A stretch of DNA of 35,991 bases from a virus: the UHGV virus genome UHGV-0222783; one strand, given 5' to 3'. How positions within the stretch are numbered: position 1 is the first letter of the stretch; every line of letters starts with the position of its first letter. The position numbers and the translations under genes are program-made. The notes beneath the pieces were generated by a model that was not told the DNA's origin, did not search any database, and saw only the letters and a program-made list of their open reading frames with translations. Of the stretch, positions 12,520 to 31,864 are shown piece after piece.

Positions 12520-12594
12520 GGGTCAGTCGTATAAAGGTCATTACGGAAGGCTGTTAACCTTCTTATCGTGGTTCGAGTCCACGCTGTCCCGCCA
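12520..12594 (+). tRNA. tRNA-like gene, anticodon GUU (Asn-like); may be degenerate
   Basis: Hand-folded cloverleaf: acceptor gggtcag/ctgtccc (one T-T mismatch), D-loop with GG, perfect anticodon stem gaagg/ccttc with loop ctGTTaa, T-arm cgtgg-ttcgagt-ccacg, discriminator G, encoded CCA. Parallels E. coli tRNA-Asn loops. Confidence 0.5.
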
Positions 12595-12599
12595 AATAT

Positions 12600-12675
12600 G
12601 CTGGTTTAGCTCCAATGGTAGAGCGGTCGCCTTGTAAGCGAATGGGTAGCGGTTCAAGTCCGTTAACCAGCACCA
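12600..12675 (+). tRNA. tRNA gene, anticodon UGU (Thr)
   Basis: Perfect 7-bp acceptor gctggtt/aaccagc, U8, D-stem gctc/gagc with GG in loop, anticodon loop cTTGTaa, T-arm agcgg-ttcaagt-ccgtt, discriminator A, encoded CCA. Confidence 0.65.
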
Positions 12676-12917: not shown

Positions 12918-13241
12918 ATGAAGATGCCAGAAAAACATGACCTGTTAGCCGCCATTCTCGCGGCAAAGGAACAAGGCATCGGGGCAATCCTTGCGTTTGC
13001 AATGGCGTACCTTCGCGGCAGATATAATGGCGGTGCGTTTACAAAAACAGTAATCGACGCAACGATGTGCGCCATTATCGCCTGGTTCATTCGTGACCTT
13101 CTCGACTTCGCCGGACTAAGTAGCAATCTCGCTTATATAACGAGCGTGTTCATCGGCTACATCGGCACTGACTCGATAGGTTCGCTTATCAAACGCTTCG
13201 CTGCTAAAAAAGCCGGAGTAGAAGATGGTGGAAATCAATAA
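12918..13241 (+). CDS. S: class I holin S (lambda S107/S105 type, dual-start MKM)
   Basis: [45 protein letters not shown]... matches lambda S as recalled. Dual-start motif Met1-Lys2-Met3. Confidence 0.95.
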
Positions 13242-13701
13242 TCAACGTAAGGCGTTCCTCGATATGCTGGCGTGGTCAGAGGGAACTGATAACGGACGTC
13301 AGAAAACCAGAAATCATGGTTATGACGTCATTGTTGGCGGAGAGCTATTCACTGATTACTCCGATCACCCTCGCAAACTTGTCACGCTAAACCCCAAACT
13401 CAAATCAACAGCAGCCGGACGTTACCAGCTTCTTTCCCGTTGGTGGGATGCCTATCGTAAGCAGCTTGGCCTGAAAGACTTCTCTCCTAAAAGCCAGGAT
13501 GCTGTTGCATTGCAGCAGATTAAGGAGCGTGGCGCTTTGCCGATGATTGATCGCGGTGATATCCGTCAGGCTATCGACCGTTGCAGCAATATCTGGGCTT
13601 CACTGCCGGGCGCTGGTTATGGTCAGTTCGAGCATAAGGCTGACAGCCTGATTGCAAAATTCAAAGAGGCTGGCGGAACGGTCAGAGAGATTGAGGTATG
13701 A
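13225..13701 (+). CDS. R: endolysin R (lytic transglycosylase, lambda R type)
   Basis: 158 aa, [45 protein letters not shown]... matches lambda R as recalled. Confidence 0.95.
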
Positions 13702-14135
13702 GCAGAGTAACCGCGATTATCTCCGCTCTGGTTATTTGCTTCATCGTCTGCCTGTCATGGGCTGTTAATCATTACCGTGATAACGCCATCGCCTACAAAG
13801 AACAGCGTGATAAGGCCGCATCCACAATTGCTGACATGCAGAAGCGTCAACGTGATGTAGCAGAACTCGACGCCAGATACACAAAGGAGCTTGCTGATGC
13901 TAACGCGACTATCGAAAGTCTCCGTGCTGATGTTTCTGCTGGGCGTAAGCGCCTGCAAGTCGCCGCCACCTGTGCAAAGTCAACGACCGGAGCCAGCAGC
14001 ATGGGCGATGGAGAAAGCCCAAGACTTACAGCAGATGCTGAACTCAATTATTACCGTCTCCGAAGTGGAATCGACAGGATAACCGCGCAGGTTAACTACC
14101 TGCAGGAATACATCAGGACGCAATGCCTTCGATGA
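13698..14135 (+). CDS. Rz: spanin inner-membrane subunit Rz
   Basis: N-terminal TM segment, coiled-coil body; similar to lambda Rz ([14 protein letters not shown]...[10 protein letters not shown]). Confidence 0.85.
13897..14082 (+). CDS. Rz1: spanin outer-membrane lipoprotein Rz1 (embedded in Rz, +1 frame)
   Basis: ATG 13897 after AAGGAG. Signal peptide with lipobox ...LLGVSAC, Pro-rich mature part ([13 protein letters not shown]); fully nested in Rz. Confidence 0.8.
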
Positions 14136-14513
14136 TAGCGATAATTTTACTCATCATCCTTCACATCTGGCTCTGTAGACAGGGTGGTGATCACTTCTGG
14201 AGTGAATCCAGATTAAACATCTCATTGCTGATGCTTGATATTGAGCATCTGGCGCGCGGTAAGGGGCTGCGTTGAGATAAGAGCCAGTTCATTACAAAGC
14301 CTATCTACTGGTGGGCTTGATAATGAAACCGGAATTTATTCTGGGTAACCAGTTACGGCAGTACAGCGAAACAACCCAAGCCAGAAAGTGGGGAAATAAC
14401 ACTGTCAGCCACTGAAAGATGAACCTCCTGCCTTATGGCAAAAAAGATTCTTTGTGGTGGCGGACTGATGGAAAGACATCCTAATCAAGCAACCACTCTA
14501 CAGGGTCATAATT

Positions 14514-14885
14514 ATGAACGACAAGCAAATTGAAAAAGAAATCGCAGCCAAGGGTAAGACGGCGGCTCGCGTTACTCCTGAACACATTGCCAGCATAATC
14601 GCCAGCGAACATTACTTTACGGCCGCTGATGGTGCTCGCTTTGCTCATGTGCAGAGAAGCGAAACATACAGCGTAAAAATCCCAGACCAGCCTGACGAGC
14701 TGGAGCTGCTGACATTCTGCGTTCTGGTGCTGAAGAATGGCTTTACGGTCACCGGGGAAAGCGCCTGCGCCAGCCCAGAGAACTTCGATGAAGAAATCGG
14801 GCGCAAGATTGCTCGCCAGAATGCTGTAAACAAAATCTGGATGCTTGAAGGTTACTTGCTGAAGCAGAAGCTAAGCGAACAGTAG
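14514..14885 (+). CDS. hypothetical protein (123 aa) between lysis and packaging modules
   Basis: ORF track; ATG 14514. Flanked by similar ~35-bp hairpin-containing direct repeats. Confidence 0.5.
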   Translation: MNDKQIEKEIAAKGKTAARVTPEHIASIIASEHYFTAADGARFAHVQRSETYSVKIPDQPDELELLTFCVLVLKNGFTVTGESACASPENFDEEIGRKIARQNAVNKIWMLEGYLLKQKLSEQ

Positions 14886-14988
14886 TTATTACAAAAGCCA
14901 TTCCCTACAGAGTGGCTTTGATAATGGCTTATACCCTACACGGGATAACTTAACTGATATCCCTTTTAACGGATAAACGGAGCCAACA

Positions 14989-15231
14989 ATGGCAGAGATT
15001 ATTCCCATGACTGAAGAACAGAAATTCCAGTTAGAGATTTACAAACTGGTCATGAACCAGAACGCAGCCGCAGAAGAAGCATTTCAGTTCATTGGCACTG
15101 ACGAGTTGAAGCTTGAGCTATTCAAAATTCACTTCCAGTCAGGCGGCGCTAATTCAGATATCACTACCCGCACTATCGAAGCGGTGCGTAAATCGAAGGA
15201 AGCGTTATACCTGTTCACCACCGGAGCATAA
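14989..15231 (+). CDS. hypothetical protein (80 aa)
   Basis: ORF track; SD-like ACGGAG upstream; directly precedes the small terminase. Confidence 0.4.
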   Translation: MAEIIPMTEEQKFQLEIYKLVMNQNAAAEEAFQFIGTDELKLELFKIHFQSGGANSDITTRTIEAVRKSKEALYLFTTGA

Positions 15232-15233
15232 AC

Positions 15234-15674
15234 ATGGCGCGCCCAACAAAGTATCAAGAGGCGTATGCCGAACAGGCACGCAAACTGTGCTTGCTGGGCT
15301 ACACCGATGCAGAGCTTGCTGATTTCTTCGAAGTCAGTGAGTCAACTATTAACAAGTGGAAGCTTGATTATCCTGAGTTTTCGGAGTCCATAAAAAAGGG
15401 TAAGGCCGTCGCTGATGCAGAAGTTAGTGACCGTCTTTATCAACGCGCTATGGGCTTCGTGGCTCCAGACATCGATATTCGTGTTATTGAAAACAGAATT
15501 GTCGAAACTCCGCTTGAGAAGTATTACCCGCCTGATACAACTGCCGCCATCTTCTGGCTTAAGAACCGACAGAAGGATAAATGGCGCGACAAGGTTGATC
15601 ACGAGCTAACAGGCAAAGACGGCGGCGCAATTCAGATTGAAACATCACCGATGAGCACTCTGTTCGGAAAATGA
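15234..15674 (+). CDS. terminase small subunit (Sf6 gp1-like)
   Basis: 146 aa with N-terminal HTH-like segment; C-terminal ...GKDGGAIQIETSPMSTLFGK as recalled for Sf6-type TerS; immediately upstream of and overlapping TerL. Confidence 0.7.
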   Translation: MARPTKYQEAYAEQARKLCLLGYTDAELADFFEVSESTINKWKLDYPEFSESIKKGKAVADAEVSDRLYQRAMGFVAPDIDIRVIENRIVETPLEKYYPPDTTAAIFWLKNRQKDKWRDKVDHELTGKDGGAIQIETSPMSTLFGK

Positions 15675-17086
15675 CCTCGATTAATCCTATCTTTGAACCG
15701 TTCATTGAGGCGCATCGCTACAAAGTCGCCAAAGGCGGTCGAGGTAGCGGTAAATCATGGGCAATTGCGAGGCTGCTTGTTGAAGCGGCGCGTCGTCAGC
15801 CAGTGCGTATTCTTTGCGCTCGTGAACTGCAAAACAGTATCAGCGATTCGGTAATCCGGCTGCTTGAAGACACCATCGAGCGTGAAGGATATTCGGCTGA
15901 GTTTGAAATTCAGCGTTCAATGATTCGTCATCTCGGAACGAATGCTGAATTCATGTTCTACGGCATCAAAAACAACCCGACGAAGATTAAATCGCTCGAA
16001 GGTATTGATATCTGCTGGGTGGAAGAAGCGGAAGCGGTAACGAAGGAATCATGGGATATCCTGATACCAACCATCCGTAAGCCGTTCTCTGAAATATGGG
16101 TGAGCTTTAACCCGAAGAACATACTCGACGATACCTATCAGCGATTCGTCGTAAATCCTCCTGATGATATTTGCCTGTTGACGGTGAACTACACCGACAA
16201 CCCGCACTTTCCTGAAGTTCTCCGTCTGGAGATGGAAGAGTGTAAACGCAGAAATCCGACACTGTATCGTCACATCTGGCTTGGTGAGCCAGTGAGCGCA
16301 AGTGATATGGCAATTATCAAACGTGAATGGCTTGAAGCCGCAACCGATGCGCACAAGAAACTCGGATGGAAAGCGAAAGGCGCTGTTGTCTCTGCGCATG
16401 ACCCATCAGATACAGGGCCAGATGCTAAAGGTTATGCATCGCGTCACGGTTCGGTAGTTAAGCGCATTGCCGAAGGTCTGCTGATGGACATCAACGAGGG
16501 TGCTGACTGGGCTACTTCGCTGGCGATTGAAGACGGCGCTGACCATTACCTGTGGGATGGTGATGGTGTTGGTGCCGGGCTACGCAGACAGACAACGGAA
16601 GCGTTTTCCGGCAAGAAAATCACCGCCACGATGTTCAAGGGCAGCGAATCGCCATTCGATGAAGATGCACCGTATCAAGCCGGAGCATGGGCTGATGAAG
16701 TCGTACAGGGTGACAACGTTCGCACTATTGGCGATGTGTTCCGCAATAAGCGAGCACAATTCTATTACGCGCTGGCTGACAGGCTGTATCTGACATATCG
16801 GGCGGTTGTCTACGGTGAGTATGCAGACCCCGACGACATGCTGAGCTTCGACAAAGAAGCGATAGGCGAGAAGATGCTGGAGAAGCTGTTTGCAGAATTG
16901 ACGCAGATTCAGCGCAAATTCAATAACAACGGGAAGCTGGAGCTAATGACTAAGGTCGAAATGAAGCAGAAGCTCGGTATTCCATCTCCTAACCTGGCTG
17001 ATGCGCTGATGATGTGTATGCATTGCCCGGAGTCGGCTGCGCAACCCGACTATTCCAGTTACTCAATTCCTTGTGGTGTAGGTTGA
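15671..17086 (+). CDS. terminase large subunit (headful packaging type)
   Basis: 471 aa; Walker A KVAKGGRGSGKSWA, Walker B-like ICWVEEAEAV, C-terminal nuclease domain. Confidence 0.9.
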   Translation: MTSINPIFEPFIEAHRYKVAKGGRGSGKSWAIARLLVEAARRQPVRILCARELQNSISDSVIRLLEDTIEREGYSAEFEIQRSMIRHLGTNAEFMFYGIKNNPTKIKSLEGIDICWVEEAEAVTKESWDILIPTIRKPFSEIWVSFNPKNILDDTYQRFVVNPPDDICLLTVNYTDNPHFPEVLRLEMEECKRRNPTLYRHIWLGEPVSASDMAIIKREWLEAATDAHKKLGWKAKGAVVSAHDPSDTGPDAKGYASRHGSVVKRIAEGLLMDINEGADWATSLAIEDGADHYLWDGDGVGAGLRRQTTEAFSGKKITATMFKGSESPFDEDAPYQAGAWADEVVQGDNVRTIGDVFRNKRAQFYYALADRLYLTYRAVVYGEYADPDDMLSFDKEAIGEKMLEKLFAELTQIQRKFNNNGKLELMTKVEMKQKLGIPSPNLADALMMCMHCPESAAQPDYSSYSIPCGVG

Positions 17087-26952: not shown

Positions 26953-28964
26953 TGAAAGTAACTGCAAATGGTAAGACATTTACCTTTCCTGATGGTACGA
27001 GCACGGAAGATATTGGGTCCGCCATTGATGAGTATTTTGCTGGTCAGTCAGCGCCAACACAACAAGGTGTTCAGCAATCGCCAGCAGACAACTCACTTGC
27101 ATCAGGATATGCACAGCTTGCCACTCAGCAGAAGGAAGGACTAGATCGCTCTGCTGAGCAAGGGGCTGTTTTAGGTGCTGCAATGCGCGATGCCGTTACC
27201 GGTGAAAGCCGAATGACACCAGAAATGGAGAGACTGCAAAATGTTGGGGCTGCCCCTGAGTTGAACTCACTAAGCATGGATGCCCTGAAGGCTGGATGGT
27301 CTCAACTTTTCGGCTCCGACGCGTCTCAGGAAAAGATTCTTCAGAGTATGGGGGCGAAATTAAGGCAGGATGAGAAGGGTAACACTATCGTTTCCCTGCC
27401 ATCCGGTGATTATGCCCTGAACAAGCCAGGTTTATCACCGCAAGACCTGACTTCGTTTCTTGCTAATGCGTTAGCGTTCACACCAGCGGGCAGGGCTGGA
27501 ACGGTGCTTGGTGCCATAGGGAAATCAGCTGCTACAGATTTAGCACTACAGGGTGGCACCAGCCTTGCTGGCGGAGAAGATATTGATCCTGCACAAACGG
27601 TAATTTCTGCTGGCATTGGTGGTGTTGGCAAGGGGCTGGAAAATACAGTTAGTGCGGTTTCCAGGGCTGTTCGCGGTGAGATGTCACCGGAAGCAAAGGC
27701 TGCTGTCGATTTTGCGTCGGAAAGAAACCTGCCGTTAATGACCAGTGACACGCTGAAAGATAAAACCTTTATGCAGAGTCAGGCTCAGACATTAGGCGAA
27801 AGAGTTCCTTTTTTTGGAACCGGTAAGAATCGGCTGAATCAACAACAAGCACGAGAAAATTTAGTCAGAACATTTAGCGATGGTCTGGGTGGCATTTCTG
27901 ATAAACAGCTTTATGAATCTGCGACTAAAGGGCAACAAAAATTCATTGAGGCAGCAGGAAAGCGATATAACCGCATAATTGACGCTATGGGGGATACCCC
28001 TGTCGATCTCTCAAACACGGTAAAAGCTATCGACAATCAGATTGCCGTGTTAAGCCGCCCGGGCAAATCTCAGGATAGAGCCGCGGTAAAAGTCTTGCAG
28101 CAATTTAAAGACGATATCACCAGCGGACCCAATGACCTGCGTCTGGCGAGAGAAAACAGAACTGACCTTCGAAAGCGGTTCATGAATTCAAACGAGACTG
28201 TTGATAAAGACACGCTCCAGAAAGCCAGCGATATTGTCTACAAGGCATATACAGCGGATATGAAAAAAGCAGTATCCCAAAAACTAGGCTCAGAAGAAGC
28301 TGCCAATATGTCTAGGGTTGATCGCTCATGGGCTAGATTCAATGACATGATGGGAAGAACGCGCGTTCAAAAGGCAATAGCCAGCGGCAAGGCTACACCT
28401 GAGGATGTAACAAAACTCGTTTTTAGCCAAAACCCATCAGAACGTTCTCAGCTTTACAGGCTTCTGGATGACAATGGTAGGCAAAACGCACGAGCAGCCA
28501 TAGTTCAGAATGCTGTAGATAAGGCGACTGATCCGTCTGGAAATATTAGTGTTGAAAAGTTTATTAATGCGTTACACCGGAACAGGAAGCAATCAGCAAC
28601 TTTCTTTAAAGGCGTACATGGAAAGGAACTGGACGGCGTTATTAAATACCTCAACGATACAAGACACGCGGCAAAAGCGAACGTTCAAAACTTAAATGGT
28701 CAGCAGCTTTATGGATTGTTAGTTGGTGGTGGCATCATAAACGCAGCAGTATTAGCGGGGATGCTAAAAACGGCTGCGTTTGTTGTTCCTGCTGCTGGTG
28801 TCGTAGGAGGAGCTGCGAAGGCATACGAAAGCCCTGTTATACGAAATGCCTTGTTACGTCTGGCAAATACGCCAAAAGGTAGCACAGCATATGACAGAGC
28901 GATCAGTACGGTCACACAATCGCTCACCAGAGTCGCACAGGCATCACAAAAAGAAGCTCAATAA
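26949..28964 (+). CDS. ejection protein (P22 gp16-like)
   Basis: 671 aa, gene order; C-terminal hydrophobic Gly-rich segment ([34 protein letters not shown]). Confidence 0.6.
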
Positions 28965-31632: not shown

Positions 31633-31864
31633 TTCGCTTGGATGCAGTAGTCAAAGAGATTGCGATTACCATTTTAAGACCAAATTTTGTTCATGGCGAA
31701 TCATTTGGCACGAACGAAAAATTGAGAAGAGAAAGAGTATTCAGTGGCAAGCGCACGTTTTCAGAAGTGATGCTTGATGCGGCAAAGAAATCAAAACAGT
31801 GAAGCCCCAACTGCTGGAACAGTCAGGGCTTCGGTTGTCGGTAAATCCGTGGAGAAAAACCAAC

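Follow-up and report, generated by a model that had tools for sequence, protein, structure and literature searches.

The virus genome UHGV-0222783 (35,991 nt, the whole of which is called the window here) was that of a P22/Sf6-like phage, and in the interval between its lysis and packaging genes two copies of one hairpin, A (14288..14327, + strand) and B (14884..14929, + strand), bracketed a single gene (14514..14885, + strand). These repeats were genuine and not a product of chance, and they belonged to a hairpin family that was apparently undescribed. We judged it slightly more probable than otherwise that A and B were two copies of a conserved cassette-punctuation hairpin of lambdoid phages, which would provide a patch of homology for recombination and would also act in the processing, stability or insulation of the late mRNA, but not as a terminator.

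Structure of the two hairpins

Hairpin A consisted of UUCAUUA-CA-AAGCCUAUC-uacu-GGUGGGCUU-GA-UAAUGAA and hairpin B of AGUUAUUA-CA-AAAGCCAUUC-ccuaca-GAGUGGCUUU-GA-UAAUGGCU. Both followed the fold common to the family, namely, a lower stem of 5-8 bp (CAUUA/UAAUG), a conserved 2x2 internal loop (CA/GA), an upper stem of 9-10 bp, and a loop of 3-6 nt. There were 16 bp in A and 18 bp in B, which together with the internal loop made 18-20 stacked positions, and the stop codon of the bracketed gene (UAG, 14883-14885) formed part of the foot of the B stem. An earlier reading of this stretch, made from its letters without database searches (the sequence-only reading), had described two similar elements that each held a short aagcc/ggctt hairpin and ended in gataATG. 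The similarity and the common ending were borne out, and both elements folded strongly on the + strand, but the hairpin was longer than described, with the CATTA/TAATG lower stem lying across the CA/GA loop. The core of A was exactly where that reading had put it (14292-14325), whereas the core of B was located at 14889-14926, which was 7 nt to the right of the proposed ~14882..14919.

The folding energy on the + strand was -19.7 kcal/mol for A (z = -6.1) and -20.2 kcal/mol for B (z = -5.6), and none of the 200 shuffles equaled these values, while folding on the - strand was weaker (z = -2.8 and -2.7). Both hairpins remained the dominant structures when they were folded with 120-nt and 250-nt context. 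A covariance model built from the relatives scored A at 60.8 bits (14286-14329) and B at 58.3 bits (14883-14930), with E of about 1e-12, and the two repeats were members of one family. These were its two matches in the 36-kb window, where the next best had 14 bits, and no extra copies of the hairpin were found there by pattern or by the covariance model. The segment 14490-14516 resembled the 3' half of B and may be a vestige of it; the covariance model gave no match at this place. Finally, the recurrence of the ctacag(g/a)gt motif that had been reported for the region was weak. The motif was exact at 14498, but its occurrence at 14905 was the loop of B and another exact one was present at 27546. 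The occurrence placed near 14156 had one mismatch and was on the minus strand (14170-14178), and nothing was found near 14935.

Conservation of pairing among relatives

Loci that were anchored on homologues of the bracketed gene, that is, not selected for the hairpin, yielded four types of the element. The upper stem was AAGCCYAUC/GGUGGGCUU in type A, AAAGCCAUUC/GAGUGGCUUU in type B, GAGACCAUUC/GAGUGGUCUC in type B', and AAGCGUCC/GGGCGCUU in type C, and the CA/GA internal loop was common to all four. Type B', which also had a different lower stem (UUAUUG/CAAUGG), was present in the phages CUS-3, HK620, epsilon34, and P22. In a MAFFT alignment of 24 variants we observed two-sided changes at 8 of the 17 pairs, and 90.9% of the cells were paired, compared to 32-50% in a control where the 3' partners were slid by 1-3 columns. 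A second alignment, which was fitted to the model and whose sample was drawn by a pattern fixing some of the letters, comprised 79 distinct sequences from 100 further loci and had two-sided changes at 12 of the 17 pairs, with 92.4% of the cells paired (30-50% in the slid controls).

The wobble pairs G.U and U.G of the core outnumbered A.C and C.A mismatches by 125 to 6, and one U.G pair was nearly invariant in both alignments. This excess of G.U over A.C indicated that the fold belonged to the sense strand only, the simplest form being RNA of the late transcript. Moreover, between type B (AAAGCC/GGCUUU) and the type B' of the four phages (GAGACC/GGUCUC) the pairing was kept while the run of U was lost. 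Since UUU was replaced by CUC together with compensating changes in the 5' arm, it was pairing rather than U-richness that was conserved. The hairpin was thus a sense-strand structure under selection, and its architecture was preserved by compensatory changes.

Position of the hairpin and spread of the family

An open reading frame (ORF) of at least 50 codons closed within -1 to +12 nt of the first paired base of the hairpin in 69 of the 101 distinct contexts, compared to 9 of 101 on the antisense strand, which served as the control. The last base of the stop codon was often itself the first paired base, and in multi-copy loci all hairpins were on one strand. At least 18 unrelated gene families were found upstream, including hkbL-like, Rha (PF09669), gp65-like, Tad2-like (PF11195), and Acb2/Tad1 (PF24729) genes as well as many PHROGs without known function. 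Downstream of the hairpins there were small terminases of the Sf6 type and of Terminase_2, HNH endonucleases, DUF2560 genes, and gp66 homologues, and in every locus inspected the interval was the one between the lysis and the packaging genes. For example, the hairpin followed hkbL in HK620 and in the Stx2 phage 1717, a GIY-YIG nuclease gene in HK106, Rha in phiKp_30, and gp62 in mEpX1. Enterobacter sp. kpr-6 (locus L220, 4600-7600, minus strand) had an array in the order endolysin, Rz, 207-aa ORF, hairpin, gene for a 173-aa membrane protein, hairpin, and 83-aa gene. P22 possessed a single copy of type B' (locus L209, 40307-40351); the annotated orf25 of this phage (40329-40406, 25 codons) began at an AUG in the hairpin loop and was probably not a gene.

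Copies of type A were present in 1315 of 5426 complete E. coli genomes (median one copy, 1-4 per genome) and in 145 phage records that belonged to P22-like, HK97/lambda-like, and Stx-converting phages. The element occurred in at least 14 genera of Enterobacterales, and prophages of Enterobacter, Leclercia, Kluyvera, Citrobacter, Pseudocitrobacter, Pantoea, and Budvicia were among its carriers. There were also exact pattern matches in eight loci on short contigs binned as Nanosynbacter, Bacillota, Collinsella, Phycisphaera, and others; these matches in non-enterobacterial bins were probably mis-binned enterobacterial phage DNA or chance. No annotated feature overlapped the A-type copies in E. 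coli among the matches listed, and no record inspected had a feature annotated at the hairpin positions. Rfam gave no match at the gathering score in the region and none at E <= 10 in 14100-15000. In the library of papers that was searched for hkbM/DUF2560/PF13876, for stem-loop boundary sequences, and for the hairpin sequence, nothing covered this element.

Presence and absence of the bracketed cassette

The junctions between conserved and exchanged segments were mapped by BLAST of 13001-16500 against 88 relatives, and the segment ends were sharply clustered. About 27 segments ended at 14298 and about 30 started at 14288-14290, in the 5' arm of hairpin A. At the other repeat, segments ended at 14884 and started at 14885, that is, at the stop codon of the gene and the 5' foot of B. 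Further clusters were located at 14338/14348-14355, 14480/14500-14511, and 15229-15238. The sequence-only reading had proposed alignment with related phages as a check on variable presence of the gene, and the outcome was positive, with the gene absent from CUS-3, HK620, epsilon34, and P22 and with junctions at 14290-14298 and 14884/14885. In these four phages a leader (to 14480) was joined straight to the B' hairpin. Another arrangement was found in 17 IMG/VR loci, where a single A-type hairpin (97% identical to 14290-14325) had the 3' flank of B (14927-14977, GGCUUAUACCC...) immediately next to it. Compared to these single-hairpin relatives, the unit that was present or absent consisted of the leader, the gene, and one repeat (14326..14926, + strand; 14290-14888 in the equivalent register).

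The leader was a non-coding module of 133 nt (14348..14480, + strand) between hairpin A and the gene. It was found in 106 loci (72 distinct sequences) with a conservation of 96-98%, which exceeded that of the gene following it, and its variable sites had no third-position bias (6/8/9 and 3/6/0). In the phages without the gene, its left neighbor was a Rha-like gene (CUS-3, P22), a GIY-YIG nuclease gene (epsilon34), or hairpin A (HK620), and its right neighbor was B'. Other loci carried additional genes. Namely, an extra cassette with a Tad2-like gene (720-1275) was located between gp65 and hairpin A in locus L045, and an extra small gene with its own terminator was located between the leader and the start of gp66 in locus L085. 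Two small ORFs, 14323-14415 after A and 14435-14533 (32 codons, overlapping the gene start), were rejected as genes since they had no codon periodicity.

At the position of hairpin A, several relatives, including CUS-3, epsilon34, and L045, had only the initial 9 nt of the hairpin (CATTACAAA), and these led into a genuine intrinsic terminator, AGCCUCGC-auuc-GCGGGGCUUUUUU (1590-1640 in the CUS-3 locus L002 and 1390-1434 in the epsilon34 locus L007). This half-site was fused to unrelated sequence in about 28 loci, exclusively after gp65, and because it was seen there alone the junction was probably one old event. The half-site as a general signal was therefore rejected, the terminator junction being confined to the context after gp65. 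More distant homologues of gp66 ended in true terminators. In sum, relatives were either without the cassette or had different genes at its site, and the role of the hairpin as a cassette boundary was well supported.

Proposed role in recombination and in the late mRNA

The gene order 3' of the tRNAs in the window was a lambda-type lysis cassette, the DUF2560 gene, the small and large terminase genes, and the portal gene. In the Sf6 record this layout was preceded by the late promoter, the qut site, and tR', which placed the hairpin region within the Q-dependent late operon and on its sense strand. In the model that we favored, the conserved sequence of ~40 bp would be a portable homology patch that recombination systems of the phage or the host could use to insert, delete, or swap cassettes. 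A homology of ~40 bp is generally held to be usable by phage single-strand-annealing recombinases. If A recombined with B, the gene would be lost and a single hybrid hairpin would stay behind; A/B hybrids without the cassette, the product expected of such an event, do exist.

The structure itself would be kept because of a function in the late mRNA, more likely in processing or stability between cistrons than in termination. After an endonucleolytic cleavage of the RNase III or RNase E type, a stable 3' hairpin would shield the upstream message, and it would also insulate neighboring cassettes from each other. The conservation of the structure, its polarity relative to the transcript, and the genuine terminators that substitute for it at the same position all pointed to such a role in the late mRNA, and the conserved internal loop and lower stem suggested a specific nuclease or binding protein.

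Several considerations weighed against this model. A function at the RNA level was deduced solely from strand asymmetry, position, and covariation, and single-stranded DNA folded on the same strand also tolerates G.T, so that a role at the DNA level would be compatible with these data. The 18-20 stacked positions were slightly below the ~22 bp of RNase III, which accommodates double-stranded RNA of about that length, or about two helical turns (PMC6212723). A simple exonuclease barrier would need no such conservation of the lower stem and of CA/GA, which hinted at a specific partner or at homogenization by recombination. Hairpin-templated repair could in principle yield compensatory changes without selection. 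With respect to the sampling, the pattern used for part of the sample fixed CAAAGC...GCTTGATAATG and inflated the conservation at those positions. In addition, the copies were related by descent, and the shuffle controls overstated the significance.

Alternative explanations

The hairpin may be a recombination element at the DNA level alone, acting through short homology, as an attC-like single-stranded site, or by way of a Chi-like sequence that it carries, and having no RNA function. We considered this unlikely. It would account for the clustering of the junctions at the hairpin feet, for the A/B hybrids, and for the fusions of the half-site after gp65, and DNA hairpins likewise tolerate G.T wobble. 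Among the 98 distinct variants, 21 had an exact Chi octamer, invariably on the sense strand, and copy A had 7 of the 8 Chi bases (14307-14314). However, a DNA site would need neither the late-gene polarity that the hairpin always had nor its abutment on stop codons, and a search for a dedicated recombinase pointed to none. The junction at the half-site looked like a single historical event, and exact Chi was missing from most copies, A and B included. Short-homology recombination alone would not preserve the pairing via compensatory changes. Where the octamer GCTGGTGG was present (in L008, L211, L092, and 28 other loci), it spanned the loop and the 3' arm, where copy A read ACTGGTGG. Its orientation was the one read by RecBCD entering from the terminase/packaging side, and the copies carrying it were not independent. 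There was no exact Chi anywhere in the window.

A bolder proposal, which we regarded as distinctly unlikely, is that a dedicated mechanism of cassette exchange recognizes the hairpin, which would be a functional counterpart of attC or a portable hotspot and would drive the rapid shuffling of anti-defense genes (Acb4, Tad2, Acb2/Tad1, and many unknowns). The likeness to the integron attC sites was architectural only: behind each promoter-less cassette there was an imperfect palindrome, conserved at its ends and variable in the center, the cassettes pointed the same way and shared a single promoter upstream, and the folding was strand-specific. In contrast to attC, the hairpin had neither the R''/R' cores (RYYYAAC / GTTRRRY) nor extrahelical bases, and it had a symmetric internal loop instead. 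No integrase gene was found in the lysis-to-terminase interval of the loci inspected, the remaining genome not having been searched for IntI, and the exchanges that we observed fit short-homology recombination, unlike those of attC/IntI.

The third possibility was that of weak or factor-dependent terminators closing morons, which the Q-modified polymerase would pass and at which the unmodified polymerase would stop in the lysogen. Genuine terminators did hold the same positions in relatives, and the upper stem of 9-10 bp with its GCC/GGC core was a G+C-rich stem-loop as in a terminator. Moreover, UUUGAUAAU followed copy B, and 15 nt further there was a small hairpin with a UUUU run. This second hairpin (14942..14972, + strand), GGGAUA...UAUCCC followed by UUUUAA, was present in both the minimum free energy and the centroid fold of 14876-14995. 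It was part of the 3' flank of B that was conserved in relatives, it was not called by a simple terminator scan, and it may be a weak terminator. As for the hairpins A and B, the tail after the upper stem was GAUAAUG rather than a U-tract, and the would-be U-tract was itself paired in the covarying lower stem. In type B' and P22 the sequence read GGUCUC/GGCCUC and then GAYAAUGG, with compensating changes on the 5' side. A scan for terminator-like structures called neither hairpin and gave no terminator after the bracketed gene. Also, the cassette to be closed by such a terminator had no recognizable promoter. Namely, a sigma-70 consensus scan had no promoter at or between the hairpins, including 14136-14513, although a weak promoter could escape this crude scan, and the TTGATA in the 3' arm had no -10 partner at 16-18 nt. 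Thus, the suggestion of the sequence-only reading that the elements were terminator-like was not upheld, and we considered the terminator explanation improbable.

The same reading had also suggested an inserted moron marked by recombination scars. This was largely right, since the gene was variably present in otherwise collinear phages (absent from CUS-3, HK620, epsilon34, P22, and the 17 single-hairpin loci) and recombination had occurred at the repeats, but the promoter and the terminator of its own that a moron has were not found. Similarly, the hairpins were at the same positions after accessory genes as the intrinsic terminators that close morons, but they had no U-tract and their 3' tail was in a covarying lower stem.

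A translation device, in which a stop codon beside the AUG of the 3' arm would serve re-initiation downstream or masking of the start codon, was very improbable. It was true that the two feet of one stem contained the stop codon (5') and the AUG (3'), that AAUG was nearly invariant, and that this AUG opened a long frame in a few loci (a 174-aa small terminase and an 89-aa DUF2560-like protein). However, most frames opened by it were of 2-30 codons and depended on the context, the 30-codon frame after A varied without codon periodicity, and there was no consistent Shine-Dalgarno sequence. In HK106 AAUG was replaced by AAUA (AUA) and in two gp66-anchored loci by AAUU (AUU), and the conservation of AAUG was accounted for by its pairing with CAUU. 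The translation-initiation cassettes proposed in the sequence-only reading were not supported on these grounds.

The least probable explanation, to which we gave hardly any credit, was a miniature mobile element inserting after genes, similar to miniature inverted-repeat transposable elements, to repetitive extragenic palindromes (REP), or to the ends of IS200/IS605. The same ~40 nt with conserved feet and a TTAC motif at the 5' foot were indeed present in many unrelated flanks and genera, but there were only 1-4 copies per E. coli genome, limited to one interval of lambdoid prophages and fixed in orientation relative to transcription, and neither an associated transposase or REP-associated tyrosine transposase (RAYT) gene nor a target-site duplication or an empty site was seen. 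REP and the bacterial interspersed mosaic elements (BIME) are repeated intergenic hairpins of E. coli that follow stop codons without a U-tract and can stabilize the upstream mRNA; REPs number in the hundreds per chromosome and have associated RAYT genes. The likeness of our hairpin to them (a hairpin without a U-tract following stop codons) was architectural only, whereas its sequence was different and it was confined to prophages.

Two further candidates were rejected. A pac or cos site did not fit, since the hairpin preceded unrelated terminases (Sf6-type, Terminase_2, and HNH endonucleases adjoining terminase genes). A small RNA, which the sequence-only reading had also listed, was not supported, as there was no promoter found and no Rfam match. 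The prophage Pas small RNAs (10.64898/2026.05.13.724894) were unrelated and were located by the holin/lysozyme operon and the Q-antiterminator region.

Comparison with other phage elements

The closest analogue in behavior was the promoter-early stem-loop (PeSL) of T4-like phages, a repeated stem-loop motif that flanks variable ORFs and mediates their shuffling (PMC2839356; PMC4122927). As with PeSLs, a conserved stem-loop repeat flanked variable ORFs here, and insertions, deletions, and replacements occurred at the hairpin. However, PeSLs are composites of a terminator and an early promoter, while our hairpin had no promoter consensus or U-tract. Its place was also within a single long late operon, in temperate lambdoid phages, and it had a covarying stem with a conserved internal loop.

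The boundary sequences (bsq) annotated in the Sf6 and CUS-3 records were comparable as short conserved sequences at the joints of P22-like mosaics, and bsq7 and bsq3 were near the region. On the other hand, bsq7 was inside Rz and bsq3 was upstream of the holin gene, and those records had no annotation of a structure.

The intercistronic RNase III sites of T7 are irregular hairpins between the cistrons of a long phage transcript, and after cleavage the hairpin would remain as a protective 3' end. The likeness to these sites was again architectural only, in the succession of upper stem, internal loop, and lower stem and in the intercistronic position. There was no sequence similarity, the loop of our hairpin was a symmetric 2x2 one and its helix was shorter, and cleavage at it is hypothetical.

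Putative anti-defense genes at the hairpins

The bracketed gene encoded a protein of 123 aa that matched the full profile of PF13876 (Phage_gp49_66) with E = 7e-37 and was a homologue of Sf6 gene 66. This family was founded by Acb4 of SPO1, a sponge that counteracts the cyclic oligonucleotide-based antiphage signaling system (CBASS) (bioRxiv 10.1101/2024.12.30.630793). The protein had a weak match to the solved Acb4 chain (PDB 9e4w, E = 0.003). Thus, on the grounds of homology, the gene was an Acb4-family gene with a predicted anti-CBASS function. In the record of phage Huey, a homologue was labeled as an anti-CRISPR protein. Tad2-like (PF11195) and Acb2/Tad1-like (PF24729) genes ended at the same hairpin family in three loci, L045 among them. 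The presence of these genes at hairpins suggested that several neighboring families without known function were candidate anti-defense genes, and together with the Acb4-family gene it suggested that the interval was a hotspot for accessory, often anti-defense genes.

Counter-defense genes of phages are small, diverse, and mobile and are therefore hard to find, and a hairpin signature of 40 nt marked their ends here. About one in four complete E. coli genomes had it, and it was unannotated wherever we looked. A search for the hairpin delimited accessory cassettes with Acb4-, Tad2-, and Acb2/Tad1-family genes and with a dozen families of unknown function. If it were the site of a dedicated exchange mechanism, new anti-defense genes might be discovered by using it as a sequence beacon. 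The hairpin also represented a concrete substrate for the mosaicism of lambdoid phages, in the form of roughly 40 conserved bp where genes meet, and its covariation made it a good candidate for a new family of structured RNA in the processing of late transcripts.

Surrounding region of the window

The region 13700-15700 was 95-98% identical, piecewise, to phiKp_30, CUS-3, Sf6, HK620, epsilon34, and mEpX1. Rz ended at 14135 and the ORF 14514..14885 began 378 bp further on, in agreement with the ~380 bp of the sequence-only reading. However, its description of this spacer as ORF-poor had to be revised, since the spacer held, besides the conserved non-coding leader (14348-14480), a conserved gene of 50 codons (14123..14275, + strand; 50 aa) that overlapped the end of Rz and was the last gene before hairpin A. 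This ORF matched PHROG 11822 with E = 4e-38, and the annotated names of its homologues were gp65 (Sf6) and gp67 (epsilon34); the product had a hydrophobic N-terminus. The first gene 3' of hairpin B was the DUF2560 gene (14989..15231, + strand), a homologue of hkbM, Sf6 gp67, and P22 orf80 according to the annotations of relatives (PF10834, E = 2e-42), and the small terminase gene was next. Elsewhere in the window, genes for tRNA-Asn and tRNA-Thr (12520-12675) were located upstream of the holin gene, likewise in Sf6 and phage 21, and the sar antisense RNA was encoded on the minus strand in the immI region (31798-31864).

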